A stretch of 64,000 nucleotides of DNA, from assembly GCA_965531145.1 (NCBI GenBank), contig CBESOE010000004.1, positions 24,912 to 88,911 of the forward strand. The letters are read 5' to 3'. The stretch's first letter is position 1. Every line of letters begins with the position of its first letter. A program made the position numbers and the translations under genes. The stretch comes from an uncultured bacterium. GTDB taxonomy: Bacteria; Acidobacteriota; JAQAZP01. The notes below the pieces were generated by a model. That model did no database searches and was not told where the DNA came from. It saw only the letters and a program-made list of their open reading frames with translations. This document shows, piece by piece, positions 20,624-59,559 of this stretch.

Positions 20624-20695
20624 TCTTCGAAAACTCCTTTTGCTCGAATCACCGCACCCCCGGGTCGTCCGGGGATCGGGTTTGCAATAGCGAAA

Positions 20696-20715: not shown

Positions 20716-20728
20716 CGGACTTTATGCC

Positions 20729-23548: not shown

Positions 23549-23911
23549 ACCGCGACCCCGCTTCACGCGCTGCGGGCGGTGCCTGTGGTACACGATTTTC
23601 ACGTCAGCCATGCTCTCATACTCGAACAGCGTTCCGACGCTGTCACCCGGTGAAACCACCAATTCTTCCTGACGATGAGTAAGTACAAAGTCAAGTTTGC
23701 CCCGATTCGGCATCCGGTGCAAGCCGCAGCGCCACCAGGACCGTGACAAAACCATGACAAAATCAGTCAATTATTCCTGGCGAACCGGCTACAATAAACC
23801 TATATATGAAAACAGCCGCACCAAATGCCTTGCCAGAAAACCGAGTACTGATTCACGCGGGGTGGTAAGCTTTTTATAAGCCTTGCCTGCCGCCCAGGAT
23901 GGGGGCCACCC

Positions 23912-42240: not shown

Positions 42241-42270
42241 AATGTTGGGGAGATTTGCCGGAGGATCGCC

Positions 42271-42774
42271 ATGGCCAGGGAAGAATCACTCAGTGCCAGC
42301 CTCGAAGACTACCTGGAGGCCATCTTCCTCATCATTGCCGAAAAAAAGGTGGCCCGGTCCAAGGACATCACCAAAAAACTGGGGGTGAGCGGGGCCTCGG
42401 TCACCGGTGCTCTGCGGGCCCTGGGCGAACGCGGCCTGATCAACTACGCCCCCTACGACGTGATCACCCTCACCGACCACGGCGAGGAACTGGCCCGGAA
42501 CATCGTCCTGCGCCACGATACGTTGAAGAACTTCTTCCACAAGATCCTCTTCATCGACGAGGCCGAAGCGGAACGCTCCGCCTGCGAAATGGAGCACTCC
42601 CTCTCCCGCCCCATCCTGCACCGCATGGTTTCCTTCATCGAGTTCATGGAGAACTGCCCGCTGGCCGGCGTGGAGTGGGCCGAGGGCATCGGCTTCCGCT
42701 GCTCCCACGGCGAGAGGATCGAAAACTGCCAGCGCTGTCAGGAAGAGTGGAAGGAAAAGGAACCGGACGCCTGA
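42271..42774 (+). CDS. DtxR/IdeR/MntR family metal-dependent transcriptional repressor
   Basis: N-terminal HTH (LEDYLEAIFLIIAEKKVARSKDITKKLGVSGASVTGALRALGERGLI); metal-binding and dimerisation region (...DEAEAERSACEMEHSL...); 167 aa; divergent from the OMT gene, next to feoAB. Confidence 0.85.
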   Translation: MAREESLSASLEDYLEAIFLIIAEKKVARSKDITKKLGVSGASVTGALRALGERGLINYAPYDVITLTDHGEELARNIVLRHDTLKNFFHKILFIDEAEAERSACEMEHSLSRPILHRMVSFIEFMENCPLAGVEWAEGIGFRCSHGERIENCQRCQEEWKEKEPDA

Positions 42775-43158
42775 GTGTACTGCCCCCTCCCTGACCTGCT
42801 CAATCCATCACAGTTTGCTATGGATCAGTGCCCGATTCCGCGTGGACGATGCAGTTCCCGATTGCCGTGCTGCCGGTGATGGTGAATCCCCGAACCAGGA
42901 CCCCGCCGGTGGTCCAGTAAATTCCCGGCTGGCTGCCGCCCTGGCAGTCGATGGTGCAGGCGGACGGGCCATCCTTCAACCGGAGGGTGATGCGGCGGAG
43001 AGCAACAGGCAGAGGGCGGACAAGAAAATCACGAACCGGATCATGGTGGCTGTCTCCTCTGATGAATACGGATGAGAGCACACCGGTAGAGCACGGCGTA
43101 TCGATATCATTGACTTCAATATAGGTGGATTTTCAGGATTCGGCAACCAGAGCCCGGC

Positions 43159-46056
43159 TCACGTCTCCCACCGCCAGCTGCCCAGGGCCAGCCCCGCCAC
43201 GATGTACGCCATGAGGTTCAGCGAGAACCAGTAGAGCCCGTCGAAGAGCAGCATGCTCAGCGAGAGGCCGGCCAGGCCGTAGATCATCGCCGTGGCCAGC
43301 TGGCGCCCCTCCTCGTCGGGGCAGGAGGACCGGCGGGTGAGGAGCGAGCGGAAAAGGAACCAGAGGAAGAGCAGGAAGAGGAGCGCCCCGGTGACCCCGG
43401 TCTCGGCGGCGATGCGGATCATCATGTTGTCCGGGGTGTTGTATTGCTCGTGGAGGAACTCCTTGCCCTTGTGGCCGCCAAAGTTCAACGCCTCCCGGGA
43501 GTAGTTGCCCGGCCCCACACCCAGCAGGGGGTTGGCGGCAGTCATGGCCAGACCGCTCTGCCAGCCGGCCAGCCGCTGGACCACCGCCGCCGACCGTGAG
43601 ATGGAGCCGAGGTCGACAAAGCGGTCCCGCAACTGGTCGCGGGCCGTGCCGGAAACCAGGGCCAGCCCGCCCAGGGACAGGACCAGGAGGACGGCACCCG
43701 CGACCAGCAGCAGCAGCTTGCGCCGGCCGAGGAAAACAGCGGCAAAGAGGGCGAGGATGACCAGCGCCCCGCGGGAGAAGGTGAGCACCAGGGCCGCCAG
43801 GATCACCAGCGACCAGGCGCTCCAGAAAATGCGGGACAGATAACAGGCGCCCTTGCGCCAGCCGAGCCACACCCCCAGGGGCAGAACCAGCAGAAGAAAG
43901 GTGGCCAGGGCGATGGGCACCACAAAGGTGGAGGCCGCGCGGAAGATCGGCACCTCGAAGTAGAACGGGGCATAGACCTTGAGAATGTTGTGCAGCAGCG
44001 GGTTGTAGCCCAGGGCATACTCGGCGACGGCCAGCAGCGAAACGGCCGTGGCCGAGAGGACCAGCGCCCGCAGCAGCAGCCCTGTTCCACGCCATGTTCC
44101 CGAGGAGGCGAGAATCAGCAGCAGGACCAGTGCGGGGAGGACAAAGAAGAGAATCGTCTGCAGGCTGGGCAGGGACCAGGCGGAGAAGAGGCTGCCGGCA
44201 AGGGCCACGAGGAGAAAAAGACCGAAAGAGATCAGGGCCCGCCGGGCCTGGACACCACCGGGCTCTTCTTCCGCGGGGAACCAGAGCCGGCGGCCCAGGA
44301 GCAGACGGAAAGGCACCAGCAGAAGCAGCAGCAGGTGCAGCGGGGTGAAGCTGATCCCGCCAACCCAGGTGCGCATGCCGCTGTAGTGTTCGAAGGGGAA
44401 GCAGGCGGCCAGGGCCACGAGCAGGATCAGCAGCAGCCGGTACGGGGTAACGGTCAGGGCGGAACCGGGAACGGTGCCTCCCTGACGGCGCAACCTGCCG
44501 ATGAGCGGCAGGATCAGCAACAGGGCCACGGCCGTCTGGAGCCACTGGCCCCAGTCCAGGCCCAGGGGCCGGGCGCGGCAGAGCTGCAGCACCGGTGCCT
44601 TGACCAGCCGGACCCGCTGAACACCGGTCCGCACAGGGTGGTTGGCCGGTTCCAGGCGCAGCCGGGTGATCTCCCCCTCCCACAGCGGGTGGGATCCGAC
44701 ATCGAGGTAGTAGATCTCGTCTCCGCCGTAACGGTTGAGGCGGAACTGGATGGAGCGGCGGCGGCTGAACCTCGGGTCGCTGCCGGTGGCCCAGTAGAAG
44801 CGCCCCTCCCCCACCCCGCTGTTCACCCGGCCCATGACTTCGATCAAGTCCACATCCCCGGCCCGGATCTTCTGCTGCTTCGCGGTGATCAGTCCGTCTC
44901 CGGGCAAGGCCAGGTCAAGCAGGGCAAATCCGCTCTCCAGCACCGGCGGCGGCTGGTTCTTCCGCGGCTGCCAGCCCTGCCAGCCCCGCTCCTCGGTGAA
45001 CACCCATTCCGCGGCAAAGGGGCCGATGAACTCCTCGTCGCCGGCCCGCGCCCTGGCAGCGTTCCTCTTGGTCTCCAGTACCCAGTCGGTCTGCAGGGCC
45101 ATGGCGTCGAGGTGCAGGCTGAGCCTCCCCTGGTTGACCGGCAACTCCAGTAACTCCACCCGCACGGCCCGCGGTGCGACGACCTCCGGCAGCCGGCGGC
45201 GGCTGTAGAAAGAACGACCGAGGCAAATGATGCCGGGGATCGTCTTCCACAATCCGGGGAGGGAGATATCGGCACAATCGAGGCCGTTGACCAGTTGGAT
45301 CTCGGTCTCCCCGCCCTCGGCATCCTCGATCACCAGCCGGGCCACGGCCTGACCGAACTCGATGCCAAAGGTATCGTTGAGCGATGACGAGATCTCGATG
45401 GCCCGGCAGGGGGGGAACCCGGGGGTGGGGATCCTGGTGGCCGGCTGCCCGGCGGTCAGGGTGATCAGCTGGTTCTGGGGCACCGGCTTGAAGTGCATGA
45501 ACGCTTCCCGCCGGTCGTCCGACTCCTCCGCACCGGTGACCCGGATCGACTCCAGGGCCAGGGTTCCCTGCTCCATAATTGGATCGAAACGGAGCTGGTC
45601 GATGGTCCCCCGCCACCAGGGCGAGCGGCCCACCTCGACGCGGCAGGTCTGCTGGACACCATCCAGCACCACCCGGAAGTAAGCACTTTTCCTGCTGCTC
45701 CAGCCCTGGTCACCCGGGTTCATCCAGAAGAGCTGGCCCACGGTGGCATCCCGCCCCAGCCGGCCCCTGGCGGCCAGTCGCATCAGTACCAGCGAGGCCT
45801 GGTCGGCGTCGAGGGCGAGGCCGGGCCGGGTGATCAGGTAGGGATCTTCCCCGGGCACTGTGTAGACCGGCATTCCCCCGATCTCACCCGCTGCGGAGGG
45901 TTCCAGTTGCTGGACATACTCGAACCGGCTGAAAGAGGGATCCTCCGCGGCTGACCAGGACCAGAATGGTGCCGGCCCGGGTTCATTCTGCGCCAGAGCG
46001 GGAATGGAGAGAGAGGTCAATACGGCGCACAGGGCCATGAGCAGCAGTCTTCTCAT
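43159..46056 (-). CDS. O-antigen ligase/Wzy-like polytopic membrane protein with a ~500-aa N-terminal extracytoplasmic domain
   Basis: Signal peptide MRRLLLMALCAVLTSLSIPALA; a 500-aa soluble domain; then ~12 TM helices with a Wzy_C/O-antigen-ligase-like periplasmic loop (...LTFSRGALVILALFAAVFLG...). 4-bp overlap with the downstream GT2 gene. Confidence 0.7.
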   Translation of the reverse strand: MRRLLLMALCAVLTSLSIPALAQNEPGPAPFWSWSAAEDPSFSRFEYVQQLEPSAAGEIGGMPVYTVPGEDPYLITRPGLALDADQASLVLMRLAARGRLGRDATVGQLFWMNPGDQGWSSRKSAYFRVVLDGVQQTCRVEVGRSPWWRGTIDQLRFDPIMEQGTLALESIRVTGAEESDDRREAFMHFKPVPQNQLITLTAGQPATRIPTPGFPPCRAIEISSSLNDTFGIEFGQAVARLVIEDAEGGETEIQLVNGLDCADISLPGLWKTIPGIICLGRSFYSRRRLPEVVAPRAVRVELLELPVNQGRLSLHLDAMALQTDWVLETKRNAARARAGDEEFIGPFAAEWVFTEERGWQGWQPRKNQPPPVLESGFALLDLALPGDGLITAKQQKIRAGDVDLIEVMGRVNSGVGEGRFYWATGSDPRFSRRRSIQFRLNRYGGDEIYYLDVGSHPLWEGEITRLRLEPANHPVRTGVQRVRLVKAPVLQLCRARPLGLDWGQWLQTAVALLLILPLIGRLRRQGGTVPGSALTVTPYRLLLILLVALAACFPFEHYSGMRTWVGGISFTPLHLLLLLLVPFRLLLGRRLWFPAEEEPGGVQARRALISFGLFLLVALAGSLFSAWSLPSLQTILFFVLPALVLLLILASSGTWRGTGLLLRALVLSATAVSLLAVAEYALGYNPLLHNILKVYAPFYFEVPIFRAASTFVVPIALATFLLLVLPLGVWLGWRKGACYLSRIFWSAWSLVILAALVLTFSRGALVILALFAAVFLGRRKLLLLVAGAVLLVLSLGGLALVSGTARDQLRDRFVDLGSISRSAAVVQRLAGWQSGLAMTAANPLLGVGPGNYSREALNFGGHKGKEFLHEQYNTPDNMMIRIAAETGVTGALLFLLFLWFLFRSLLTRRSSCPDEEGRQLATAMIYGLAGLSLSMLLFDGLYWFSLNLMAYIVAGLALGSWRWET

Positions 46057-47090
46057 CGACCACCTCCACCAAGGAAAGGCCGGAAGCGAAAGAACCCGGC
46101 AGCCATGCCGGCCAGCAGCGCCAGGGCGCGCAGTCCCAGCAGGAACGGCGAGGCCAGGGCCAGCAGCGGGTCCCGGCGCAGCGTGGCCGCGGCAAAGGGG
46201 ACCGTGGCCGCTATAAAAATCACCAGGAAGAGCAGTGACAGCAAAGCTGCCGGCGGGTAGACCAGGGCGGCGGCCAGCGTGGCCAGAGCCCCGGCCGCGG
46301 CGGCCAGCTGGGCCTTCAATGTCCGCGGGGTGTAGCTGTCCCCGGCAGCCTTGCCCGGGTAACGGCGGTAGACCTTCATCCGCCAGTAGCCACGGCTCAC
46401 CTTCAACCTGACATACCCGGCCAGCGAGGCCCGGTGCCGGTGCTCCACCACCGCCGCCGGGGCAAAGACCATCCGGTGACCGGCAGCGGCAATGCGGTAG
46501 GAGAGATCAACGTCCTCGTTGTTGGGCACCGGGAAGCTGGTGTCGAACCCGCCCACCTCTTCCAGCACCAGCCGGCGAAACGCCGCGGCATAGGTGTCGA
46601 CAAAGTCGATGGAGTCGAGGCGGGCCATCAGGCGATACCGTTCCTCGAATTCAGCCTGGGCAAACCTGGCGGCCAGCGAGCGCTGGGCCGTACGGTAGGT
46701 GCCTTTCACCCCGCCCACCTCCGGGTCCTCCAGCAGGGGGCGGCAGATCTCGGCCACCCAGCGCTGGTCGGGAATGCAGTCGGCATCGGTGAAGAGCACC
46801 AGATCTCCCCGGGCCGCCTCGATACCGGCGTTGCGGGCCACGGCCGGACCACCCCGGGTGCCCAGGCCGATTACCCGCAGCGCCTCGCCCCCGGCCTCCC
46901 GGGCCGCACGGGCCGTGCCGTCGGTGGAGCCATCGTCCACCACCAGCAGTTCCACCCGGCCGGGCAGATCCTGCTGGCCGGCCAGGGCGCGGACACAGAG
47001 CGGCAGCCGGTCCGCGGCATTGAACACCGGCACCACCACCGAGATCAGCGGTGCGGAAGTATCCTGCTGTTCGGCTGTGCTGGTCATCAT
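46053..47090 (-). CDS. Family 2 glycosyltransferase with C-terminal TM helices
   Basis: Start at MMTSTAEQ (47090) inside track ORF 46053..47228. GT2 motifs ISVVVPVFNAADRL ... VDDGSTDGT ... FTDADC. 4-bp overlap with the radical SAM gene. Confidence 0.85.
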   Translation of the reverse strand: MMTSTAEQQDTSAPLISVVVPVFNAADRLPLCVRALAGQQDLPGRVELLVVDDGSTDGTARAAREAGGEALRVIGLGTRGGPAVARNAGIEAARGDLVLFTDADCIPDQRWVAEICRPLLEDPEVGGVKGTYRTAQRSLAARFAQAEFEERYRLMARLDSIDFVDTYAAAFRRLVLEEVGGFDTSFPVPNNEDVDLSYRIAAAGHRMVFAPAAVVEHRHRASLAGYVRLKVSRGYWRMKVYRRYPGKAAGDSYTPRTLKAQLAAAAGALATLAAALVYPPAALLSLLFLVIFIAATVPFAAATLRRDPLLALASPFLLGLRALALLAGMAAGFFRFRPFLGGGGR

Positions 47091-48532
47091 CCCCTGAACA
47101 GGTATTTGATAAATGTCTTCAGCGCCTTGACATTGCGCACCGCTTCCCCGGGATCGGTCACCGTCTGCCAGGCCTTGTAGAGCAGGTACCGCGGCCGGAG
47201 GTAGAACCGCCTCCGGGCGCGGTTGCAAAAGGCCACCAGTTGGGCGCCGTCAACGCTGCCGGTGGAAATCACGCAATTGTGCTGGCCGGTCTCATCCAGC
47301 CATTGGGTGTAGTCCTCGGTCTCCAGCAGCCCTTCCGAGCGGTAGAACTCGTAGGCCGTGGTGCCGGGGTAGACCATCACCGGGTAGAACTGAGCCGTGT
47401 CGGGCCGCAGGGCGGCGGCCAGCCGGTAGGTCCGCTCCAGGTCGTCGGCGGTCTCCCCCGGGAACCCGACGATGAAGCAGCCGTGGACCAGGATGCCGGC
47501 CTGGCGGGCGTCCCGGACAAACTGGTGCATCCGCATGGTGTCCAGCTTCTTCTCGATAAAGGCCAGCGAGGCCGGGGCGCCGCTTTCGAAGCCGACGCAC
47601 ACCTGCCGGCAGCCGGCCCGTTTCATCAGCTGCAGCAGCTCCACCGGGACATCGGCCCGGGCATTGGCCGTCCAGGGGATATCGATGCCGGCGGCGAGGA
47701 TCGCCTCGCAGAGCGCCGCCACCCGCTTCGACCCCAGGGTAAAAGTGTCGTCCTCGAAAAAGAGCCCGCGGACCTCGGGGAAATGTTGCTTGATGTAGTG
47801 CAGTTCCTCAACCACGTTCTCCGGCGAGCGGGTGCGCAGCCGCCGGCCCATGGTGGTCTGGGGGTAGAGACAGAAGCTGCAGCTGTGGGGGCAACCGCGG
47901 CTGGTGACCAGGGTCAGCATGGGGTAGAGCGAATTGGGGTTGAAGTAGTGAGCCGGCACCAGGTGGCGGCGGTAGAAGGCGGAGACAAAGGGCAGCTGGT
48001 CAAGGTCGGCGATGGGTTGACGGGGCGCGGTGACCACCGTCCCGTCCCCCTCGCCGCGCAGCACCAGGCCCGGAACTCCGGACAGCTCCAGGCCCTGCTC
48101 CAGGGCCGCGGCGAGATCACGAACGGTTTCGTCGTATTCACCCACCACCACCGCGTCCAGCGCCGGGCACTGGTCCAGTGCCTCTTCCGGCAGGGAGGTT
48201 ACATGGGTCCCGGTGGCCACCGTAAAGCAGTTGGGCAACCGCTCCCTGATCCGCTCCGTAAAGCGGAGGTCATTGTTGATGCTCGGGGTAGAGGTGTCGA
48301 TCACCGCCAGTGCCGGGTCACCGGCAACGGCCTCGTCCAGGGCGGCCGTTTCGTCCAGGCCCCGGGCCGGTGCATCCACCATGGTCACCAGGAACCCCGA
48401 CGCCTCCAGCAGCGCGCCGGCGTGGGCCAGCCAGAGGGGATAGTAGAGCGTCCCGCTGCGGGTCACCGCCGGGCTCCGCTGAGCCCTGGAATAGAGCGGC
48501 AGGTAGGGCGGGTTGATCAGGCTGACCTTCAC
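47087..48532 (-). CDS. B12-binding domain radical SAM protein (class B radical SAM)
   Basis: Likely GTG start at 48532 (VKVSLINPPY...) preceded by GGAAGGAG RBS and overlapping the GT9 TGA stop (GTGA). N-terminal B12-binding Rossmann-like region, then radical SAM core SRGCPHSCSFCLYP (CxxxCxxC). Confidence 0.85.
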   Translation of the reverse strand: MKVSLINPPYLPLYSRAQRSPAVTRSGTLYYPLWLAHAGALLEASGFLVTMVDAPARGLDETAALDEAVAGDPALAVIDTSTPSINNDLRFTERIRERLPNCFTVATGTHVTSLPEEALDQCPALDAVVVGEYDETVRDLAAALEQGLELSGVPGLVLRGEGDGTVVTAPRQPIADLDQLPFVSAFYRRHLVPAHYFNPNSLYPMLTLVTSRGCPHSCSFCLYPQTTMGRRLRTRSPENVVEELHYIKQHFPEVRGLFFEDDTFTLGSKRVAALCEAILAAGIDIPWTANARADVPVELLQLMKRAGCRQVCVGFESGAPASLAFIEKKLDTMRMHQFVRDARQAGILVHGCFIVGFPGETADDLERTYRLAAALRPDTAQFYPVMVYPGTTAYEFYRSEGLLETEDYTQWLDETGQHNCVISTGSVDGAQLVAFCNRARRRFYLRPRYLLYKAWQTVTDPGEAVRNVKALKTFIKYLFRG

Positions 48533-49752
48533 CGGGTCTCTCCTTCCACTGTGGGTCCGGCGGACAGGATCTCCATACAGCAATTATAAACCGCTTCGAG
48601 GTCGATCTGCTCCATGCAGGGGGTCGATCGTGTGCAGCCGGGAAAGGGCTCGTTGTTGTAACAGGGGCTGCAGTCCTGCCGGGCCTCGATCACCCGCACC
48701 CCCGGCTGGTCCAGGGGCAGGAGCGCCGCCGCCCTGGTGGGGCCGAAAAGGCCCACCAGGGGAACACCGAGGGCCAGGGCCATGTGCATCGGCGCCGAGT
48801 CCACCGTGACCAGCAGGGCCACCCGGCGAATCAGTCCGGCCAGCGATCTGAGGCTGGTGGACCCGGAAAAATCGACGGCCGGGCGGTTCATTCTTCCGGC
48901 CACCTCCCGGACCAGCTCCGCTTCCCCAGGTGAGCCGAAAAGCCAGACCGGCCGCCCGGTCTGCTCGTTGATCCGGTCGGCCAGGGCGGCAAACCGATCG
49001 GCCGGCCACCGTTTCTCCGGCACGCGATCACGCGGATTGACCCCGCCGCCCGGGACCAGGCCCACCGGCCCGCCGTTGCCGGCATCGGCACCCAACGCCT
49101 TGATCAGCCGCTCCGCCTCCCGGTCCGCCTCCTCCCCCGGATGGAACTCCAGCGACCGGCCGCCCGGGCCAGACTCCGGCACACCGCCGCCGCAGGCCGC
49201 CGCGGCCAGCCGGAGATAGTCGTCCAGCACGTAGTGCAGGTCATTGGGCCCGCGCCAGGGCACAGACGAGGTGAGGGAGAACCCCGATCCGCCGGCATCG
49301 AAACCGATGCGGTTGGGCACACCGGCCAGGCGGGCCAGCAGGTGAACCGGCCAGGCCGGGTGGAAGATCACCGCCGTCTCGCATCCCAGCCGGCCGATCA
49401 ATCGCACCGTCTCCCGCACCGCAGCGGGACGGCGGGCCAGCAACCGCTGCTCGGGTACAGCCACCACCCGGTGAAGATGGGGATTCCCCTCGAGGAGCGG
49501 CAGGGCGCTGTCTCCGGTGAGAAAGATCAGCTCCGCCTCGGGAAGCTGCCGGCGGAGCAGGCGGATCGCCGGCGTGACCATCAGGATGTCGCCGAGGGCG
49601 TGGGTCTTGACCAGCAGCACCCGGCCCGGTCGGGTCCGGTCGGGCCGGCGGTCCAGGCCCCGGGAAAGGGCCCGGCCCAGACCCTGGACGGTCTGCCTCC
49701 AGAACTGGCTGCCGCTGACGGTCATCCCGTCACCCTGGTCCTGCGGCTGCAC
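48529..49752 (-). CDS. Family 9 glycosyltransferase (LPS heptosyltransferase-like)
   Basis: GT9 pattern VLLVKTHALGDILMVTPAIRLLRRQLPEAELIFLTG ... GSPGEAE ... VTVDSAPMHMALALGVPLVGLFGPT. Start may be M at 49725. Confidence 0.8.
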   Translation of the reverse strand: MQPQDQGDGMTVSGSQFWRQTVQGLGRALSRGLDRRPDRTRPGRVLLVKTHALGDILMVTPAIRLLRRQLPEAELIFLTGDSALPLLEGNPHLHRVVAVPEQRLLARRPAAVRETVRLIGRLGCETAVIFHPAWPVHLLARLAGVPNRIGFDAGGSGFSLTSSVPWRGPNDLHYVLDDYLRLAAAACGGGVPESGPGGRSLEFHPGEEADREAERLIKALGADAGNGGPVGLVPGGGVNPRDRVPEKRWPADRFAALADRINEQTGRPVWLFGSPGEAELVREVAGRMNRPAVDFSGSTSLRSLAGLIRRVALLVTVDSAPMHMALALGVPLVGLFGPTRAAALLPLDQPGVRVIEARQDCSPCYNNEPFPGCTRSTPCMEQIDLEAVYNCCMEILSAGPTVEGETR

Positions 49753-49753
49753 C

Positions 49754-51193
49754 TCAGGTGAGCCGGAATTCCTCCCGCTGGCCCGCGGGCCAGATCACCC
49801 CGGCGTGCTCGTGCTGGGGGCAGAGGGCTGACGGTCCGGGCCCGGCCAGGGCTTCGGCCAGGTCCAGGCCGGCCTCGATGGAGTCGTCCATGTTGTTGTA
49901 CCAGAAGGTCCCGCAACGCCCGAGACAGAGGAGGTTGGCAAAGGGTGACAGCTGGTGGACGAAGCTGGCCAGCTGCTGCGGGTATTCCATGCGGTAGACC
50001 GGGTACGCTCCCCTGACCACTTCGCTGTGCACCCGCTCCACCCGGCTGCGCTCCACCAGCCTCACCGCTTCCAACTCGCCCACCACCTGCTCCTGGATCC
50101 GGGCCAGTTCCTCTGCCGCCGGCGGCTCGCCGGGCCAGGTCACTTCAACGCAGAGCCCGTCCTTGCCTGCGGGCACCAGGCCGGGGTGGAAGTTGCGCGG
50201 GAAGGAGATCCGCGAGATGGCCAGGTCGCTGTCCGAAAAGTATGTCCACTGATTCGGCGTCTCCACCTGCCCCGACACCTCCACATTGAAGATCAGCAGG
50301 CTGAGAAAGTCCAGACGGGGCAGGTCCACCCCCAGGCCGGCGGCCAGGTCGGCCGGAGGCGCGGTCCAGACCATCCAGGACGGCTCCACCCGCTGGCCCT
50401 GGAAACGAACCGCGGTGACCCGTTCCCCGTCACTCTCCAGGGCCAGGTCCTCCACGCCGGTGACCAGGCGGCCGCCGTCCCCGAGAAAGGCGTCGCGCAC
50501 CCGCTCCGCATAGAGGTCGATTCCCCCTTCGGGGTAGATGAACTTGGTCACCTTGGGCTTGGGCAGCAGAGCGATCCGCAGCACGTCGAACAGCGACCCC
50601 TGCTGGTAGCGGCGGTCGATGGTGGCCCGGTGGATCGACTGGCTGGCCCAGCTGTAATGCAACCGGTCGGGTGTGCAGTGGGCAAACTTGGTGGTGTAGC
50701 CCTTGAAGAAAACATCGTAGAGCGTCGGTCCGTAGCGGCTGACGATGTACTCTTCGAAACTCTGGTCGCCGCCGGCATCGTCATCCCTGTCCCCGCCCCG
50801 GCGCCCGGTCAGCAGGTCCCGCAGGCAGCGCAGAAGGACCGATGGCGGGAGGCGGAAGATGGAGGAGGTCCCCAGGGGCCAGGTGTGGTAGCGGCGGAAG
50901 AGGTAGACGCTGCTGCAGCGGTCGATGAGTACATACTGCTCCCCCAACGCTTCCCGGATCAGCGCCAGCGCCCGTTCGCTGTATGTATGGAAGCGGTGCG
51001 GCCCGATGTCGAAGGTGAAATCACCGTAGCGAAAACAGCGGGCCAGGCCGCCCACTTCGGGCAGACGCTCGATGAGCAGCACCGGCAGGCCGCGGCGGGT
51101 GAGCTCCCGCGCGGCGGTGAGACCGGCGATGCCGGCACCCACCACCACCACCGGCCGGCTGGTGTCGATCTGCCCGTTGTTGGTGCTCTCCAT
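49754..51193 (-). CDS. FAD-dependent oxidoreductase, UDP-galactopyranose-mutase-like / amine-oxidase superfamily
   Basis: Start at MESTNNGQIDTSRPVVVVGAGIAGLTAAREL (GxGxxG dinucleotide motif) inside track ORF 49754..51349; UGM-like ...GGLARCFRYGDFTFDIGPHRFHT. Confidence 0.7.
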   Translation of the reverse strand: MESTNNGQIDTSRPVVVVGAGIAGLTAARELTRRGLPVLLIERLPEVGGLARCFRYGDFTFDIGPHRFHTYSERALALIREALGEQYVLIDRCSSVYLFRRYHTWPLGTSSIFRLPPSVLLRCLRDLLTGRRGGDRDDDAGGDQSFEEYIVSRYGPTLYDVFFKGYTTKFAHCTPDRLHYSWASQSIHRATIDRRYQQGSLFDVLRIALLPKPKVTKFIYPEGGIDLYAERVRDAFLGDGGRLVTGVEDLALESDGERVTAVRFQGQRVEPSWMVWTAPPADLAAGLGVDLPRLDFLSLLIFNVEVSGQVETPNQWTYFSDSDLAISRISFPRNFHPGLVPAGKDGLCVEVTWPGEPPAAEELARIQEQVVGELEAVRLVERSRVERVHSEVVRGAYPVYRMEYPQQLASFVHQLSPFANLLCLGRCGTFWYNNMDDSIEAGLDLAEALAGPGPSALCPQHEHAGVIWPAGQREEFRLT

Positions 51194-51460
51194 CGTCCTC
51201 GCCTCTGCCCCGCACATCAACCCCGGCGGGCCTGCATTCATCTCTGACGGGAATTGGTTCTGGATCAGGGATGTGTCCTTCGACGAACAGCCAGTGTATC
51301 GGGCATTTCCGGCCCGCGTCAACCCGGGAGGAGCAAGCTGTCCCGGCAATTGGACTTGCCCGCTGATCTGATCCTAAGTAGAGTAACCACAGGTTATAAA
51401 CCATCACCCCCGGAAAGCCGATGAGAGAGAAGTGACTTCGGGGGAGCAGGGACCAGCAGC

Positions 51461-52603
51461 ATGCAGCGAGCAGCATTTTCCAGAACGGCAGCAGCGCAGA
51501 GATACGGGATACTCATCCTTCTGGTCGTTTTCTATCTCATTACCGGAGCGGTGGCAACAACGGCATCTGCCGATGAGACCACCTGCTCTGCCTGTGGCAA
51601 GACCATCCGCGGGGAGTACCTGGTTCTCGATGGTCACCCCTATTGCAGCCAGAACTGTATCGACGCGGTGCTCCCGGCCTGTGCGGTCTGTGGCGAGGCG
51701 ATCAGGGGCCCCTACCTGACCTTTGACGGCAGGCGGTACTGCAGCCAGGCCTGCCTGGACCGGAATCTGCCGGCCTGCGACATGTGCGGGCGTCCGGTGC
51801 AGGGTCAGTATTTTGAGAGCAAGGGGAAAACATACTGCAGCGATGACTGCTACCAGCTCTCGCTTCCCCGCTGCGAGGCCTGCGGCGAAGGGATGAAGGA
51901 GTGGCTGGAAATCGAGGGTCGGCTCTACTGCCACCCCTGCGCGGCCAGACAGCGTTGTGACGTCTGCGGCCACCCCGGGCAGACGTACGGCCTGGGCGAC
52001 GGACGGCGGATCTGCTCCCTCTGCCGGGAGACGGCGGTGATGGATCAGGCCGACGCCGAACAGCTCTTCCAGATGGTGCGCAAACGGATGGACCGCTCGC
52101 TTGACCTCGCCACCGACCACGAGATCGAGTTCCACCTGGTGAGCCGCGACGACCTGGACCGGATCAGCAACGGCTCTTCCAGCGGCCGGGAACTGGGCTA
52201 CTACCAGTACCAGGCCGAAACCACCACCACCTACCTCACCACCCGCGACCGCTACGGTCGGGAAGACAAACGGGTGGCCGGCGAGAAGACCGACAAGAAG
52301 TTCCGCATCTATGTTCTCTACGGGCTGCCGGAAAAACGACTGATGGAGGTGACGGCCCACGAACTGGCCCACGACTGGATGTATGCCAACCTGCCGCGGA
52401 TCAAGGCCCCGATCTTTGAAGAGGGATTTGCCGAATACGTGGCCTGGCTGGTCAATGACCGCTTTGGCCACGAAAAGCTGAAGATACGGATCGAAGAGAA
52501 CAGTGACCCGATCTATGGCGACGGCTTCCAGATGATGAAGGGCCTGGCTGACCGGTATGGCGGCCTCGACGGTCTGATCGGGTATCTCGACGAACTTCCC
52601 TGA
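51461..52603 (+). CDS. Membrane-anchored DA1-like protein: five tandem LIM-type single zinc fingers plus a C-terminal HExxH metallopeptidase domain
   Basis: TM anchor ILILLVVFYLITGAVATTASA. Five C-x2-C-x(13-15)-[HC]-x2-C units (CSACGKTIRGEYLVLDGHPYCSQNC; CAVCGEAIRGPYLTFDGRRYCSQAC; CDMCGRPVQGQYFESKGKTYCSDDC; CEACGEGMKEWLEIEGRLYCHPC; CDVCGHPGQTYGLGDGRRICSLC). HELAHDWMY close to the DA1-family HEMMHAW motif. Confidence 0.7.
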   Translation: MQRAAFSRTAAAQRYGILILLVVFYLITGAVATTASADETTCSACGKTIRGEYLVLDGHPYCSQNCIDAVLPACAVCGEAIRGPYLTFDGRRYCSQACLDRNLPACDMCGRPVQGQYFESKGKTYCSDDCYQLSLPRCEACGEGMKEWLEIEGRLYCHPCAARQRCDVCGHPGQTYGLGDGRRICSLCRETAVMDQADAEQLFQMVRKRMDRSLDLATDHEIEFHLVSRDDLDRISNGSSSGRELGYYQYQAETTTTYLTTRDRYGREDKRVAGEKTDKKFRIYVLYGLPEKRLMEVTAHELAHDWMYANLPRIKAPIFEEGFAEYVAWLVNDRFGHEKLKIRIEENSDPIYGDGFQMMKGLADRYGGLDGLIGYLDELP

Positions 52604-52946: not shown

Positions 52947-55502
52947 GTGAAGGAGGATATCTTGTCATTCTATCCCGGCCGCAGCCTTCCGGAGAACGAC
53001 CCTCAACGGCCGTCCAGGACAGCCGGACGGGATAGTACGCTGCTTGATAATCCGTGGCTCCGATCAGCCCTGTTCCTGATCCTCTTCGCCGCCCTCTTCT
53101 TCTTCACCACCGGGATGAACGGCGAGGACGATTATCCCCACGGCGAGTTCGACGAAGACTGCACACTCTGTCACGGTGATGAAGATTGGCTGCCGGTGGT
53201 GATTTCGCCGGAGTTCGACCACGACGAGGTATCCGGCTTCACCCGGCGCGGAGCGCACCTCGACCTGGGCTGCCCCGCCTGTCACAAGAGCCTCAACTTC
53301 GCCGAGGCGCCCCGGGAGTGCGCCGGCTGCCACCTCGACGTGCACATGGGCGAGCTGGGCTCGGACTGCGGACGCTGCCATGAGATTTACAGTTTCATCG
53401 ACAACGCAAGCTGGCTGCGCCGGCACAGTTCCACCCGGTTTCCGCTCACCGGCAGGCACCTCACCGCCGACTGCGAGGAGTGCCACCCGCCCCAGCCCCA
53501 GGGCCGGCTGATCTGGGTCAACCGGCCGGTGGACTGTTTCGCCTGCCATAGGGAAGAATATGAAGGGACGGGCAATCCCGACCACCGCGCTGCCGGATTC
53601 CCCACTGGTTGCGAGCAGTGCCACTCCACCAGCAGTTGGACCACGGGCAGTAGCAGCAGCGGTCACAGCGGGTTCCCGCTCACCGGCGGGCACACCGGTC
53701 TCGATTGCGACCTCTGCCACATCGACGGTGTGTACGAAGGCACACCCACCCACTGCTTCGGTTGCCACCAGGACGACTACAACCGGGAGCACGCCGGCAG
53801 CGGCTTTCCCACCGACTGCACCCAGTGCCACTCCACCAGCGACTGGGACGCAGAGGAGACGGGGCACACCAGCTTCCCGCTCACCGGGGCCCACGCCCCG
53901 CTGGACTGTGACGCCTGCCACGCCAACGGGGTCTACGAAGGGACACCCAGCGACTGCTACGCCTGCCACCAGGACGACTACGACCAGACCGACGACCCGG
54001 ACCACCAGGCCGCCGGCTATCCCACCGACTGCGACCAGTGCCACTCCACCAGCAACTGGGATGCCGAGGACGCGCACACCAGCTTCCCGCTCACCGGCGG
54101 GCACGGCGGTCTCGACTGCAACGACTGCCACGCCAACGGTATCTACCAGGGAACGCCCACGAACTGCGTGGCCTGCCACCAGGACGACTACAACCGAGAG
54201 CACACCGGCAGCGGCTTTCCCACCGACTGCACCCAGTGCCACACAACGGCAACCTGGGAGGGAGCCACCGATCACTCGTCGTTCCCGCTCACCGGGGCCC
54301 ACGGCACACTGGACTGCGACGCCTGCCACGGCAATGGGGTCTATGAGGGGACACCCACCGACTGCTACGACTGCCACCGCAGCGACTACGACCAGGAGCA
54401 CGCCGGCAGTGGCTTCTCCACTGACTGCACCGAGTGCCACACCACCAGCAACTGGGATGCCGACATCGATCACACCGGCTGGCCGCTCACCGGCGCCCAC
54501 GCTGCTGTGGACTGCAGCCTCTGCCACATCAACGGGGTCTACGAGGGGACACCCACCGACTGCTGGTCCTGTCACAGCAGCGAGTACAACGAGGAGCACA
54601 GCGGCAGCGGCTTCCCCCATGACTGCACTGAATGCCACACCACATCCAGCTGGGACTCGGAGGATGCGCACACCGACTTCCCGCTCACCGGCGGGCATGG
54701 CGGCCTGGACTGCAACCTCTGCCATCCCGGCGGGTCCTACCAGGGGACACCCACCGACTGCTGGTCCTGTCACCAGGAGGACTACGAAGACGAGCATGCC
54801 GGCAGCGGCTTCCCCCACGACTGCACCGAGTGCCACACGATCAACGACTGGGACGCCGATTTCGCCCACACCACCTGGGCCCTCAATGGCGCCCATGCTT
54901 CGGTGGCCTGCAACGACTGTCATGAAAACGGCGTCTACGAAGGAACGCCCACCGACTGTTTCGATTGCCACCAGCAGGACTTCAGCGGTGAACATGGCGG
55001 GGAGGGATACCCCCACGACTGCCTGCTCTGTCACGACGAGAACAACTGGGACTCCGATTACGACCACGACTCGGTCTGGCCGCTCACCGGCGAGCACCGC
55101 TTTGCCAACTGCACCGAGTGCCATATCAACGATGTGTACCAGGGGACACCCACACTCTGCTACGACTGTCACCGGGAAGATTACGAGGACGAGCACTCCA
55201 GCAGCACGCCCCACCAGTGCGAGGAGTGTCACAACACCAGTGACTGGGATGATGCCAACAGCCGGGCCGCCATGCCGAACCACGACGCGCTGTTCCCCAT
55301 CCACTCCGGCCGGCACCGCAACCTCTGGTTCTCCTGCAAGGACTGTCATCCGAACAAGAAGAACCCGTCCGTGTTCACCTGCGCCGGCTGTCACTCCCCC
55401 GGTGACCACCCGGCCTCCGGCCTGAAAAAAGCGGGCCCGGCCCCCTCTGTTTTCAGAAGCGTGGACCGGGACTGCCTGGTCTGCCATCCGAGGGGGGACT
55501 GA
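52947..55502 (+). CDS. Multihaem c-type cytochrome with 34 CxxCH motifs, N-terminal membrane/signal anchor
   Basis: 34 CxxCH motifs counted in 851 aa (CTLCH, CPACH, CAGCH, CGRCH ... CAGCH, CLVCH), many as paired CXXCH ~10 aa apart with abundant extra His for bis-His ligation. Hydrophobic N-terminal segment SALFLILFAALFFFTTG. Likely real start is TTG at 52962, 5 nt after a strong GAAGGAGGA SD; the track used GTG at 52947. Confidence 0.8.
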   Translation: MKEDILSFYPGRSLPENDPQRPSRTAGRDSTLLDNPWLRSALFLILFAALFFFTTGMNGEDDYPHGEFDEDCTLCHGDEDWLPVVISPEFDHDEVSGFTRRGAHLDLGCPACHKSLNFAEAPRECAGCHLDVHMGELGSDCGRCHEIYSFIDNASWLRRHSSTRFPLTGRHLTADCEECHPPQPQGRLIWVNRPVDCFACHREEYEGTGNPDHRAAGFPTGCEQCHSTSSWTTGSSSSGHSGFPLTGGHTGLDCDLCHIDGVYEGTPTHCFGCHQDDYNREHAGSGFPTDCTQCHSTSDWDAEETGHTSFPLTGAHAPLDCDACHANGVYEGTPSDCYACHQDDYDQTDDPDHQAAGYPTDCDQCHSTSNWDAEDAHTSFPLTGGHGGLDCNDCHANGIYQGTPTNCVACHQDDYNREHTGSGFPTDCTQCHTTATWEGATDHSSFPLTGAHGTLDCDACHGNGVYEGTPTDCYDCHRSDYDQEHAGSGFSTDCTECHTTSNWDADIDHTGWPLTGAHAAVDCSLCHINGVYEGTPTDCWSCHSSEYNEEHSGSGFPHDCTECHTTSSWDSEDAHTDFPLTGGHGGLDCNLCHPGGSYQGTPTDCWSCHQEDYEDEHAGSGFPHDCTECHTINDWDADFAHTTWALNGAHASVACNDCHENGVYEGTPTDCFDCHQQDFSGEHGGEGYPHDCLLCHDENNWDSDYDHDSVWPLTGEHRFANCTECHINDVYQGTPTLCYDCHREDYEDEHSSSTPHQCEECHNTSDWDDANSRAAMPNHDALFPIHSGRHRNLWFSCKDCHPNKKNPSVFTCAGCHSPGDHPASGLKKAGPAPSVFRSVDRDCLVCHPRGD
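53547..55227 (+). repeat. Coding tandem repeat: ~9 copies of a ~60-aa three-haem module
   Basis: Recurring unit GFPTDCTQCHSTSDWDAEETGHTSFPLTGAHAPLDCDACHANGVYEGTPSDCYACHQDDY with conserved F-P-L-T-G-[GA]-H and G-T-P-[TS]-D-C spacing. Confidence 0.75.
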
Positions 55503-57154
55503 TGATGAACAGCAGAACCCTCTTCACCGTGGCAATACTCCTGGCCCTCACTACCCTGATCACAGCTCGGCCACTGGCCGCCGCGGAAGCCGAACAGGCC
55601 ACCTGCCAGGTGACCTATCTCACCGGCAGTTCGGTCTACATCGACGCCGGCAGCGAGGACGGCCTGCGTCCCGGCGACCTGGTGGAACTGCTCAGCGGTG
55701 AGCAGGTGGTCATGGTGCTCCGGGTGCGCGACGTCTCCAGCCGCAAGGCGGCCTGCGTCCCCCAGGACCAGGAACTGGCCCTGGCCGGCCTGGTCAATGC
55801 CGGCGATACCGTGCGCTATGTCAAACACACCGCCGAGGCCTCAGCAGACCCGGCCGCTGCCGCGGGAGCGGTGGCCGGACAATCGGCCGGCGGCGCGGAG
55901 ACCGAAGAGCACAACGTGCCGGCGGATTCATCCGACGCCACCATCTTCGGCGGCCTGCGCGGGCGGGTGGGCCTGGCCTACCTGATGGTCAACGACAATG
56001 AGAACGACAGCGGCGGGTTCAGCCGGCCGGCGGTCACCCTGCGTCTCGACGGTGAGCACCTGGGTGACTCACCGTTCAGCATCCACATCGACACCCGGAT
56101 GCGGCGCACCACCAGCAACGTCGACGACGAAGCGGTGAACCGCGCCCGGGTCTACCGCTTCTCCGCCGAATACCAGCGACAGGGGTCGCCATACCGCTTC
56201 TCCCTGGGCCGGCAGTACTCGCCGGGGCTCTCCGGACTGACCCTCTTTGACGGCCTGCTGGCCGAGCGGCGCACCGACAAATGGGCCTTCGGCCTTTTCG
56301 GCGGCACCCAGCCCGACTACGAGGACTACACCTTTTCCTCGGACACTACCCAGTACGGCCTCTACGCCCAGCGGACCAGTCTTCCCGGCGCGGAGAAGCA
56401 GTGGGATCTGACCGCCGGTCTGGCCGCCACCTACGGCAAGGGCGAGGACTTCCGCGAGTTTCTCTTTCTCCAGGCCAACTACTTCACCCGGCGGCTGACC
56501 CTCTCCTTCAACCAGGAGGTGGACTTCAACCGCGACTGGAAATCGGACGCCGGGGAGAGCACGGTCCAGCCCACCAGCACCTTTGCCATCGCACGCTACC
56601 GGGTGGGCGACAACGTGACGCTGAACATCGGCTATGACGACCGGCGCCAGGTGATGCTCTACCGCGAGTTCGAGAACCCGGAGACCGAGTTCGACGACGA
56701 CAACCGGCAGGGGCTGTGGGGCGGGGTCGACGTGAGCTTCCTCAGGCGCTACCGCGCCGGGGTGCAGTATCGCGGTAACAGCGGTGGCGATGCCGGCAGT
56801 TCCAACTCCTACACCCTGACCCTGGGGGCGGCGGACCTCTTCCCCTTCCACCTCGACATCGGGGCACGTTCCACCCGTTTCGAGAACGACCGCTCGGAGG
56901 GCTGGCTCAACTCGCTGAACCTCTACCTGCCGGTGGGCCGGCGCACCCAGTTCTCGCTCTACGGGGGGCTGCGCCAGGATGAATACCCCAACGCGCTCAG
57001 CTCGGACCTGACCAGCCAGGACCTGGTCTGGTATGGCGCGGAGATGAACCTCCGCCTGGGCCGGTCGTGGTTCTTCCTCATCTCACTGGAACGGAATTCC
57101 GGAGACACCGAGGACTTCGACCAGCTCTACACCATGATCAGCTACCGGTTTTGA
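55502..57154 (+). CDS. Outer-membrane beta-barrel protein co-transcribed with the multihaem cytochrome (candidate porin partner)
   Basis: ATG overlaps the cytochrome TGA (ATGATGA). Signal peptide MMNSRTLFTVAILLALTTLITARPLAAAEA; ~120-aa N-terminal soluble segment; then alternating-pattern strands rich in Y/G/R/D; C-terminal ...YTMISYRF. Confidence 0.7.
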   Translation: MMNSRTLFTVAILLALTTLITARPLAAAEAEQATCQVTYLTGSSVYIDAGSEDGLRPGDLVELLSGEQVVMVLRVRDVSSRKAACVPQDQELALAGLVNAGDTVRYVKHTAEASADPAAAAGAVAGQSAGGAETEEHNVPADSSDATIFGGLRGRVGLAYLMVNDNENDSGGFSRPAVTLRLDGEHLGDSPFSIHIDTRMRRTTSNVDDEAVNRARVYRFSAEYQRQGSPYRFSLGRQYSPGLSGLTLFDGLLAERRTDKWAFGLFGGTQPDYEDYTFSSDTTQYGLYAQRTSLPGAEKQWDLTAGLAATYGKGEDFREFLFLQANYFTRRLTLSFNQEVDFNRDWKSDAGESTVQPTSTFAIARYRVGDNVTLNIGYDDRRQVMLYREFENPETEFDDDNRQGLWGGVDVSFLRRYRAGVQYRGNSGGDAGSSNSYTLTLGAADLFPFHLDIGARSTRFENDRSEGWLNSLNLYLPVGRRTQFSLYGGLRQDEYPNALSSDLTSQDLVWYGAEMNLRLGRSWFFLISLERNSGDTEDFDQLYTMISYRF

Positions 57155-57160: not shown

Positions 57161-58230
57161 TTAAAATCCACCGGCAGCCACAGTCGCTCCATATTTCCAA
57201 TCGGCGGGAAAGGCCTGCAATGAAAACTGCAGGTGCATCCGGGACCCGTCATAACTGTACACATTGACCGGTGATCCGGTTGACGGGTCCGGCCCGGGGC
57301 CCACCACCACTTCATTCCGCCAGTCACCGTCCAGATCGGCGGTGGCACAGACCTTCGCCCCGTACCGCACCTGGCTCGGCAACCAGGCAAAGAAGTTGAA
57401 CCCCGGCAGTTCGGTCACCGCTGTCCCGTCGTAGTTCCAGCCCCGGACATGGGCCCCGAAGGCCGCACCCGGGCCCGCACCGGTGACCAGCTCGTCCAGC
57501 CCGTCACCGTCCACGTCACCACAGGTGACATTCACGCCGTATTCGTTGGTCCCGTATGCGAAGAAACTCACCGCCGGAATGGCCTCGGCCGGACCGCCGT
57601 CCACATTCCACCCCCTGACGTGGGGACCGAATATCGTACCGGGCCCGGCGCCGGTGACGATCTCGTCATACCCGTCGCCGTCGATGTCCCCGGCGGCCAC
57701 GTTCACCCCCCACTGGATGGTACCGTAGGCAAAAAAGTTGACCCACGGGGATGGGGCCGCACTGCCGCCGCCGCCGTACTGGACCAGGTCGAACGCGCGG
57801 ACGTGCGGGCCAAAAACCCGCCCCGGTCCGGCGCCGGTGATCACCTCCCACGCCTCGTCATCGTCGATATCACCGGCACAGACGTTCACCCCGTATCGGG
57901 GTGTGCCGTAGGCAAAGAAGTTGAGCCCGGGCACCGGCACCCCATCCACCGTGAATCCCCGAACGTGGGGGCCGTAGATCTCACCAGGCCCGGCGCCGGT
58001 GAGCACTTCATCCACCTGGTTGCCGTCCACATCGCCGCAGCTCACATTTACTCCGTGGCTGGGGGCGCCATAAGCGGTGAACTCGCTGGTGTGGGTTGCG
58101 TCCTGCTGTGGCGGGAAGGTGCGCACCAGGGGCGGATTGGTGAGGCCCGGGCCAGGGCCGGCGACCAGGCCGGGGGTGGTGATCGGCGATGATTCACCCT
58201 TGTACAGCGCACTGTAATGCCGGGTCAGGT
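57161..58230 (-). repeat. Coding tandem repeat: FG-GAP blades (C-terminal propeller module, copy 3 of 3)
   Basis: Same family as 8229..9266 and 9941..11030; produces the antisense ORF 57449..58192 (+) in the track. Confidence 0.75.
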
Positions 58231-59549: not shown

Positions 59550-59559
59550 TCGACATTCT

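Follow-up and report, generated by a model that had tools for sequence, protein, structure and literature searches.

What does a radical S-adenosylmethionine (SAM) enzyme with a B12-binding domain contribute to a gene cluster for bacterial surface polysaccharide? The question is raised by a 64-kb stretch of DNA from an uncultured Acidobacteriota bacterium (the window, by which we mean the whole stretch that was analyzed), in which five successive open reading frames (ORFs) on the minus strand, between positions 43159 and 51193, encode a flavoenzyme, a family 9 glycosyltransferase (GT9), the radical SAM enzyme, a family 2 glycosyltransferase (GT2), and a large membrane protein with a Wzy_C domain. 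We propose, at a probability of about one half, that this operon makes a lipopolysaccharide (LPS)-type envelope glycoconjugate, core or O-chain-like, and that the GT2 installs a lipid-linked sugar, which the radical SAM enzyme then rearranges. The locus is a polysaccharide/LPS operon built from known superfamilies rather than a new kind of system, and the gene identities given in a first-pass annotation of the window (a mutase-like flavoenzyme, a GT9, a B12-binding radical SAM protein with a CxxxCxxC motif, a GT2, and an O-antigen-ligase-like protein) proved accurate by Pfam and NCBIfam. What that annotation had suggested about the chemistry of the radical SAM enzyme fared less well, and it is with this enzyme and its relatives that most of the argument below is concerned.

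Five coupled genes behind one promoter-like site

The first gene of the operon (49754–51193, minus strand, as are all five) encodes a flavin adenine dinucleotide (FAD)-dependent flavoenzyme of 479 aa that resembles uridine diphosphate (UDP)-galactopyranose mutases (UGMs) and falls in a PRK07208-like group. Its stop codon lies 1 nt from the earliest possible start of the GT9 gene (48529–49752), whose longest ORF has 407 aa and whose real start may lie a few codons downstream. Inspection of the remaining junctions revealed three 4-bp overlaps: GTGA between the GT9 stop and the start of the radical SAM gene (47087–48532), with GAAGGAG ahead of it; ATGA between the radical SAM stop and the start of the GT2 gene (46053–47090; 345 aa); and again ATGA, preceded by GGAGG, between the GT2 stop and the start of the Wzy_C gene (43159–46056; 965 aa). 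A Shine–Dalgarno-like purine run thus precedes both the GT9/radical SAM and the GT2/Wzy_C overlaps. Read from its GTG start, the radical SAM enzyme has 481 aa, in agreement with its 481-aa homologues. About 100 nt 5′ of the ATG of the first gene there is a promoter-like, sigma-70-like site (51293–51322, minus strand: TTGACG, an 18-nt spacer, TACACT), recognized by consensus match only. The tight packing, the overlaps, and this site together make the five genes a compact, translationally coupled operon behind one promoter-like site, and the three overlaps bear out the earlier description of five co-directional, mostly 4-bp-overlapping genes.

The same set recurs in identical order, at 75–90% protein identity, in metagenome-assembled genomes (MAGs) of related uncultured Acidobacteriota (contigs L001, L004, and L005), and hence the arrangement is not due to chance. 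We also considered whether the operon is a recently transferred island, a notion that finds no support in base composition, with a GC fraction of 0.67–0.70 in the cluster versus 0.59–0.70 elsewhere in the window.

A radical SAM enzyme close to HpnJ

The radical SAM enzyme carries an N-terminal B12-binding domain (PF02310, 47.9 bits) followed by a Radical_SAM domain (PF04055, 86.2 bits), and its three cysteines, C214-x3-C218-x2-C221, are invariant in the family alignment; with the B12-binding domain, the radical SAM core, and the CxxxCxxC motif, the protein has the full class B architecture. The best NCBIfam model is that of HpnJ (TIGR03471), which aligns end to end at 358.3 bits yet stays under its equivalog cutoff of 577.6. 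BchE comes second at 180 bits, and the named methylase models (PhpK-type, HpnR, KedN5, C-methylases of ribosomally synthesized and post-translationally modified peptides (RiPPs), and Mmp10-type) score 77–123 bits. HpnJ was likewise the top model for all 15 diverse family members tested, with the same ranking below it and a best E value of 4e-127, and none of the 15 reaches the cutoff.

In a search of 5.8 billion proteins, the closest homologues were a few Acidobacteriota sequences at 83–90% identity, followed by a block at 50–56% identity from Nitrospirota (Thermodesulfovibrionia, Magnetobacterium, and relatives), cable bacteria, and other Desulfobacterota. Family members from six phyla share 50–65% identity with one another, 33–38% with HpnJ, and 45–49% with a homologue on a Lawsonia plasmid; an annotated HpnJ, encoded in an hpnI-hpnJ-hpnK cluster on a Mycetohabitans plasmid, shares 37% identity with the enzyme of the window over 434 aa. 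The high identity within the family versus the lower identity to HpnJ, together with the ranking of the models, argues that the enzyme is part of a sister family of HpnJ, distinct and tightly conserved, for which no curated model exists. Literature searches combining radical SAM or B12 with DUF362, glycosyltransferase, heptosyltransferase, O-antigen, or the Kuenenia O-antigen ligase found no paper on this family, and a search on B12-binding radical SAM enzymes with lipid A returned only archaeal papers on glycerol dialkyl glycerol tetraethers (GDGTs).

The relationship to HpnJ matters for what may be expected of the enzyme. Upon deletion of hpnJ, the bacteriohopanetetrol (BHT) cyclitol ether is no longer formed and BHT-glucosamine remains; the standing hypothesis is that HpnJ contracts the ring of the lipid-linked glucosamine, a reaction also proposed for the archaeal radical SAM calditol synthase Cds, acting on glycosylated GDGT (PMC13459092, PMC9092360). 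The first-pass annotation had reasoned from the class B architecture that the enzyme would typically be a methylase, and had held that membership in a BchE-type family would count against a role in glycan modification. Its reading of the architecture stands. The step from class B to methylation is weakened by the model scores, with HpnJ and then BchE, both non-methylating, as nearest families. The enzyme does fall in the BchE/HpnJ-type branch, and the link to glycan modification nonetheless survives, because HpnJ acts on a lipid-linked sugar.

It is possible, though in our estimation doubtful, that the enzyme is a cobalamin-dependent C- (or P-) methyltransferase, through which an LPS or polysaccharide would acquire a C-methyl branched sugar or a decoration of the methylphosphonate type. 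Most characterized class B enzymes do methylate, as is well established, and the B12-binding and Radical_SAM domains are those of this class; the P-methylase models PhpK and Sden_1168 match at 123 and 113 bits, and the HpnR, KedN5, and RiPP C-methylase models also match. All these scores, however, lie far below the 358 bits for HpnJ and also below the 180 for BchE. The best solved-structure sequence match, moreover, is AprD4 (6fd2, E 6.6e-23; AprD4 model, 92 bits), a non-methylating diol dehydratase that is not known to depend on cobalamin. The presence of a B12-binding domain is hence no proof of cobalamin binding, which cannot be read from sequence.

A true HpnJ, extending hopanoids through synthesis of the BHT cyclitol ether, was considered as well and rejected. 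HpnJ is indeed the best NCBIfam match, and some Acidobacteria are reported to produce hopanoids (PMC5462960). This reading nevertheless appears very improbable to us: the score of 358 bits falls short of a cutoff that no family member passes, the identity to HpnJ is 37%, and the conserved partners of the family are GT9, LpxL-like, and Wzy_C genes rather than hpn genes. Within the window we found no hpnK homologue, and the sole match to HpnI was a weak one, to the cluster's own GT2.

A conserved module in the genomes of other phyla

A scan of one genome per species yielded 471 genomes with a relative of the radical SAM enzyme. The best 80 loci were analyzed, with all ORFs clustered and annotated against Pfam, and the counts that follow are restricted to loci whose flanking sequence was long enough. 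In 52 of 75 such loci, the radical SAM gene is followed immediately by a co-directional gene for a GT2 orthologue. On the upstream side, within 3.5 kb, 40 of 70 loci have a GT9 gene and 38 of 70 a gene for a DUF362/4Fe-4S protein, while an LpxL-family acyltransferase is encoded upstream in 26 of 55. The carriers are Nitrospirota, Desulfobacterota (including cable bacteria), anammox Planctomycetota, Verrucomicrobiota, and others, mostly anaerobic lineages. The module of Candidatus Electrothrix has an LpxL-like gene on one side and fabZ-lpxA-lpxI on the other. Kuenenia and a Thermodesulfovibrionales MAG share the order Wzy_C, Wzz-like, LpxL-like, second radical SAM, GT9, radical SAM, with the GT2 gene next in the Thermodesulfovibrionales only. 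In a Verrucomicrobiota MAG (L085, 5942–8380), the GT2 orthologue is fused to CoA_binding_3 and Bac_transf domains, that is, to a polyprenyl-phosphate sugar-1-phosphate transferase, and this fusion provides Rosetta-stone evidence that the GT2 acts on a polyprenyl-linked glycan.

From these comparisons, the radical SAM–GT2 pair is the invariant core of the module, echoing hpnI-hpnJ, and its wider setting is the assembly of lipid A, core, or O-chain. The radical SAM–GT2(–GT9) module is widespread and uncharacterized, and it lies outside both the textbook LPS pathways and the literature searched. No radical SAM enzyme is known from the canonical core or O-antigen pathways, and such enzymes have no place in textbook accounts of LPS or O-antigen biosynthesis. 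The claim that the locus is an LPS/polysaccharide cluster is supported by the strongly conserved synteny of the radical SAM gene with GT2 and GT9 genes. The accompanying statement that such enzymes are rare in LPS-core-type clusters is wrong for this family, which recurs with GT9, GT2, and LpxL-like genes and has relatives in 471 species genomes.

The Acidobacteriota version of the module differs from the others in three respects: it is without the DUF362 gene, it starts with the gene for the UGM-like flavoenzyme, and its last gene encodes the fused Wzy_C protein; weak homologues of the flavoenzyme also occur in three other loci (L026, L068, and L081). In most loci from other phyla, a DUF362 protein with a 4Fe-4S ferredoxin-type domain is encoded between the GT9 and radical SAM genes (for instance, L002, 8754–9998, and L003, 8602–9849). 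This protein may be an electron donor for the radical SAM enzyme; a search for literature linking DUF362 to radical SAM enzymes found none.

A partner of this kind brings up another alternative, namely that the enzyme carries out redox or elimination chemistry with an electron-transfer protein, either by 1,2-diol dehydration as in AprD4, which yields a deoxy sugar, or by anaerobic insertion of oxygen as in BchE. In most phyla the DUF362/4Fe-4S protein would serve as partner, and in the window the flavoenzyme; the reaction would be an O2-independent substitute for oxygenase-dependent LPS modifications. The sequence match to AprD4 in the PDB, the rank of BchE as second-best family, the frequency of DUF362 genes upstream, and the mostly anaerobic carriers are all consistent with such a scheme. 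On the other hand, the HpnJ score is about twice that of BchE and about four times that of AprD4, the flavoenzyme resembles a pyranose/furanose mutase and not a reductase, and no AprD3-type reductase is encoded. We judge this scheme improbable.

Several observations on individual loci may be recorded here. In the Verrucomicrobiota locus with the GT2 fusion, the gene next to the radical SAM gene on its upstream side encodes a protein of the type I phosphodiesterase family. A second, unrelated B12-binding radical SAM enzyme is encoded just upstream of the GT9 gene in Kuenenia (L045, 7353–8795) and in the Thermodesulfovibrionales MAG (L084, 7345–8796); these two copies are 53% identical to each other, the family as a whole is 20–25% identical to the second enzyme, and no copy was found in the window. 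Plasmid 1 of Lawsonia intracellularis (NC_008012.1, L086; 27 kb), an obligate intracellular pig pathogen, encodes at 9001–10464 the radical SAM homologue mentioned above, at 45% identity and surrounded by genes for SIS-domain, GHMP-kinase, and HAD-IIIA proteins (all of the heptose-nucleotide type), a second radical SAM enzyme, five class I methyltransferases, and three GT2 enzymes.

Two features of the neighborhoods bear on the methyltransferase alternative and would suit it: phosphodiesterase-family (Phosphodiest) genes occur near the module in 17 of the 80 loci, and the Lawsonia homologue lies among methyltransferase genes.

Flavoenzyme and glycosyltransferases

Pfam recognizes NAD_binding_8 and Amino_oxidase domains in the flavoenzyme. 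Its score against NF005547 (195 bits) is under the cutoff of 380, and the Glf equivalog TIGR00031 matches at 35.7 bits, over the N-terminal FAD-binding part only and short of its cutoff of 303.75. All top matches in the PDB are nonetheless UGMs, the best being that of Trypanosoma cruzi (4dsg), matched over the full length at E 1.6e-13 with phmmer. In the alignment to 4dsg, the flavoenzyme keeps GPH on the GGH His loop, FFKGYTTKF for the FxxYTxK motif, and Arg and Tyr positions, whereas one diphosphate-binding Arg position of UGM reads Lys; in UGMs these are active-site residues, and the Arg and Tyr positions bind the nucleotide sugar. The label of a UGM-like enzyme is thus fair, albeit for a protein that, unlike Glf and the characterized UGMs, groups with uncharacterized PRK07208-like flavoproteins.

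The GT9 scores 101.4 bits against Glyco_transf_9 (PF01075; cutoff, 22). It resembles the LPS machinery in being 25% identical to Escherichia coli WaaF (E 1e-15), with PDB matches to 3tov and 1psw. Unlike WaaC and WaaF themselves, it stays below every heptosyltransferase equivalog cutoff, the closest being heptosyltransferase II (WaaF), at 108 bits versus 134.6. The GT2 matches Glycos_transf_2 at 98 bits, has a DAD motif, and ends in two hydrophobic helices predicted to span the membrane; its best solved relative is the integral-membrane GT2 6yv7, to which it aligns over its full length.

A WaaL-fold protein with carbohydrate-binding-like modules

What is the relevance of the unusual architecture of the last protein? 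It begins with a predicted signal peptide (residues 1–23, MRRLLLMALCAVLTSLSIPALAQ; 45988–46056, minus strand), recognized by a hydrophobic segment at residues 3–23 and an AxA-type end (ALA before Q). Residues ~24–500 contain no hydrophobic segment, after which ~12–13 transmembrane (TM) segments follow. The claim that this ligase-like protein has an atypically large extracytoplasmic N-terminal domain was therefore correct: a signal peptide precedes a periplasmic region of ~480 aa. Structure prediction of this region gave two carbohydrate-binding module (CBM)-like beta-sandwiches. The first spans residues ~58–175 and ends in LRFDP (45532–45885; predicted local distance difference test (pLDDT), ~80), and the second spans residues ~345–488 and ends in LRLEP (44593–45024; both on the minus strand). 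The two are homologous, an internal repeat at 28% identity and E 2e-10.

In the predicted structures the modules are beta-jelly rolls like those of CBM22, CBM28, CBM4, and CBM6. They thus have the fold of carbohydrate-binding modules and lie outside the described CBM families, with 5–15% identity to solved CBMs; no Pfam match was found for the N-terminal domain at E ≤ 10. Unlike the modules of CBM22, CBM28, CBM4/9, and CBM6, they are also joined to a Wzy_C membrane enzyme. An exhaustive HMMER search of representative sequences located the complete N-terminal domain in just one other 50%-identity cluster, represented by the orthologue P0121. The ~120-aa module by itself is found in 656 representative proteins, usually in at least two copies, and its partners in secreted proteins are GH5, cohesin, fn3, CBM_4_9, M23, SLH, and pectate-lyase-like beta-helix domains. 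Of the 150 top-ranking representatives, those that fuse the module to Wzy_C come from two lineages only, and in one of them the protein (P0248) carries a single copy. The orthologues from L001 and P0121 are 78–86% identical to the protein of the window.

The polytopic domain (residues 501–965; 43159–44556, minus strand) matches Wzy_C (PF04932) at residues 750–895 with 61.3 bits, above the cutoff of 31.7, and found no PDB sequence at E ≤ 1. A model of the membrane part (mean pLDDT 66.6, pTM 0.69) has WaaL (7tpg) as its top Foldseek match (E 2.1e-7, TM scores 0.54/0.60), followed by the SEDS proteins RodA and FtsW. Two arginines, Arg762 and Arg828, are invariant in the Wzy_C alignment and, by hhalign, align to R215 and R288 of E. 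coli WaaL, functionally important residues on its periplasmic face, a further likeness to the LPS machinery. The His of the H[NSQ]x9Gxx[GTY] motif is not kept, and the protein reads D876-N877-x9-G-x-x-G, with Asp also in P0121 and Glu in P0248. The protein thus differs from WaaL in the Asp at the position of the catalytic His, in ~480 additional periplasmic residues with the two CBM-like modules, and in an extra TM helix. From these comparisons, it represents a rare, CBM-fused, Asp-for-His variant of the WaaL/Wzy family. The neighboring Wzy_C proteins of anammox loci (L045, 2770–4212; L042; L059) also read D-N, whereas those of Nitrospirota (L018, L023, L048, and L082) keep H-N or H-S, so that Asp at this position could be the hallmark of a functional subclass among Wzy_C enzymes.

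One may also ask whether the product is an LPS at all. The operon might instead supply the envelope with something else (an exopolysaccharide, free glycolipid, or protein O-glycan, for example), in which case the Wzy_C protein would act as a Wzy polymerase or PglL-like oligosaccharyltransferase, and the radical SAM chemistry could be any of those considered here. No lipid A or core gene was found in the window, Wzz-like genes adjoin Wzy_C genes in related loci, which suggests polymerization, and the loss of the WaaL catalytic His and the presence of CBM-like modules suited to polymer binding are in line with such a product. It is also established that enzymes of the Lip_A_acyltrans family acylate non-LPS glycolipids, for example mycobacterial PatA. 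Nevertheless, we regard a non-LPS product as rather unlikely, given that GT9 enzymes are overwhelmingly LPS inner-core enzymes, that cable bacteria have the module within their lipid A operon, and that LpxL-like genes are present in about half of the sufficiently flanked loci.

Model for the pathway

In conjunction with the gene order, coupling, domain and fold assignments, family relations, and synteny described above, we infer the acceptor, the radical SAM chemistry, the donor sugars, and the ligase or polymerase role of the Wzy_C protein in the following model for an LPS-type glycoconjugate. At the cytoplasmic face, the membrane GT2 would add a hexose to a lipid-anchored acceptor, for which a polyprenyl-(di)phosphate-linked sugar and a lipid A-core-like glycolipid are the candidates. 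The translationally coupled radical SAM enzyme would then abstract a hydrogen from the lipid-linked sugar and, by analogy with HpnJ, rearrange rather than methylate it; ring contraction to a carbocyclic, cyclitol-like unit is our favored guess. The GT9 would add a heptose-type sugar, with a furanose nucleotide sugar provided by the UGM-like flavoenzyme. After export, the WaaL-fold Wzy_C protein would polymerize or ligate the glycan, and its two periplasmic CBM-like modules may hold the glycan chain or the acceptor.

We favor a non-methylating rearrangement because the family adjoins HpnJ and BchE and because the pairing of GT2 with the radical SAM enzyme mirrors that of hpnI with hpnJ. As with HpnJ, the enzyme combines a B12-binding and a radical SAM domain and aligns end to end with it, a membrane GT2 gene adjoins its gene (here through the 4-bp overlap), and the enzyme presumably acts on a sugar that a membrane lipid already carries. 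The comparison has its limits: unlike the HpnI/HpnK/HpnJ system, the operon has a radical SAM protein that scores below the HpnJ cutoff, encodes no deacetylase or hopanoid genes, and has a GT2 that is no HpnI orthologue, and the wider family has GT9, LpxL-like, and Wzy_C partners and carriers that include cable bacteria and Magnetobacterium. In its proposed logic the model is also reminiscent of Cds and of PtmC of the pactamycin pathway, for which glycosylation of a lipid or aglycone is proposed to precede radical formation of a carbocycle (PMC13459092, PMC9092360); the organisms and final products differ. A further likeness to Wzy/Wzz and core machinery lies in the LpxL-like and Wzz-like neighbors of related loci. 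The unusual sugar modification that the first-pass annotation had suggested is a reasonable reading of the locus.

A number of points weigh against this model. The proposed rearrangement rests on 37% identity to HpnJ, itself biochemically uncharacterized, and at that distance the chemistry may differ. An HpnK-type deacetylase was not found in the window, and the GT2 resembles HpnI weakly. Most other members of the family are paired with the DUF362/4Fe-4S protein, which is missing from this operon, so the Acidobacteriota version may work differently. Searches of the window for lipid A, Wzx, Wzz, and priming-transferase genes found none, nor did searches there for a second radical SAM enzyme and for LpxL-like, DUF362, Wzz, and HpnK proteins; with no lipid A gene in the window, the assignment to LPS and to its acceptor rests on the loci of relatives. 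In the Wzy_C protein, Asp replaces a His that is kept in seven distant Wzy_C proteins and that aligns with the His of the E. coli WaaL HN motif, and both AlphaFold models are of medium confidence only (mean pLDDT ~66).

Flanking genes and other features of the window

The genes around the operon are functionally unrelated to it and encode FeoB, an O-methyltransferase further downstream on the same strand, a divergent LIM/DA1-like protein, and a multihaem cytochrome. On its 3′ side (42255–43158), the Wzy_C gene runs almost straight into the O-methyltransferase gene. In the related contig L001, ~6 kb of additional genes lie there (15451–21229; FG-GAP_2, Reg_prop, a Crp-like protein, and an Fe-dependent repressor), an insertion or deletion between close relatives at the operon boundary. 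Divergently from the operon, a 380-aa protein (51461–52603, plus strand) combines an N-terminal hydrophobic segment with repeated LIM-like, Cys-rich zinc fingers and a DA1-like peptidase, a combination best known from plants and other eukaryotes; it also lies beside the cluster in L001, where it is called as two genes. An 851-aa multihaem cytochrome follows (52947–55502, plus strand), with cytochrome c7/c3 repeats and an MtrC/MtrF-like domain, and then a 550-aa ORF without a Pfam match (55502–57154, plus strand). L001 likewise has cytochromes of this kind beside the cluster, a hint that this lineage of Acidobacteriota may carry out extracellular electron transfer.

Four large FG-GAP-repeat proteins, an unusual density for 64 kb, are encoded at 6981–9266 (plus strand) and at 9941–13255, 20729–23770, and 57161–59719 (all minus); one has a Sortilin/Vps10-like domain, one a PEGA domain, and one DUF4214, DUF5010, and GH99-like parts. 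For two very long putative ORFs, of 1019 aa (23912–26971, plus) and 1136 aa (33044–36454, minus), Pfam gave nothing at E ≤ 1e-4. Scans of the window for Rfam families and tRNAs were negative.

Implications

We speculate further, with a good deal of reserve, on a more specific version of the model, in which the GT2 and the HpnJ-like radical SAM enzyme together turn a lipid-linked hexose into a carbocyclic sugar resembling a cyclitol or calditol, which becomes part of the LPS or envelope glycolipid in Nitrospirota, cable bacteria, anammox bacteria, and these Acidobacteriota, and in which, in the last lineage, the product is handled by a new subclass of CBM-fused, WaaL-fold, Asp-for-His proteins. 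In this full form we consider the proposal rather unlikely. The origin of caryose, a carbasugar of LPS, is explicitly stated to be unknown (PMC9092360), and if the carbocyclic version were true, the enzymology of carbocyclic sugars would be described for the first time for the surface glycans of bacteria. Should the radical SAM enzyme turn out to be an ordinary C-methylase, the locus would merely be another decorated polysaccharide cluster.

Across at least six phyla, the HpnJ-like family is tied to a GT2 and, usually, to GT9 and LpxL-like genes; groups of environmental importance, namely cable bacteria, anammox bacteria, and magnetotactic Nitrospirota, are among the carriers. With its CBM-like modules and its Asp in place of His, the Wzy_C protein points to a mechanistic variant within the WaaL/Wzy family. 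If the radical SAM enzyme indeed rearranges a lipid-linked sugar, chemistry of the HpnJ, Cds, and PtmC type would gain a new and widely distributed test case, and the carriers would possess an undescribed component of their outer-membrane glycolipids, one that could serve as a biomarker and be a determinant of envelope stability.

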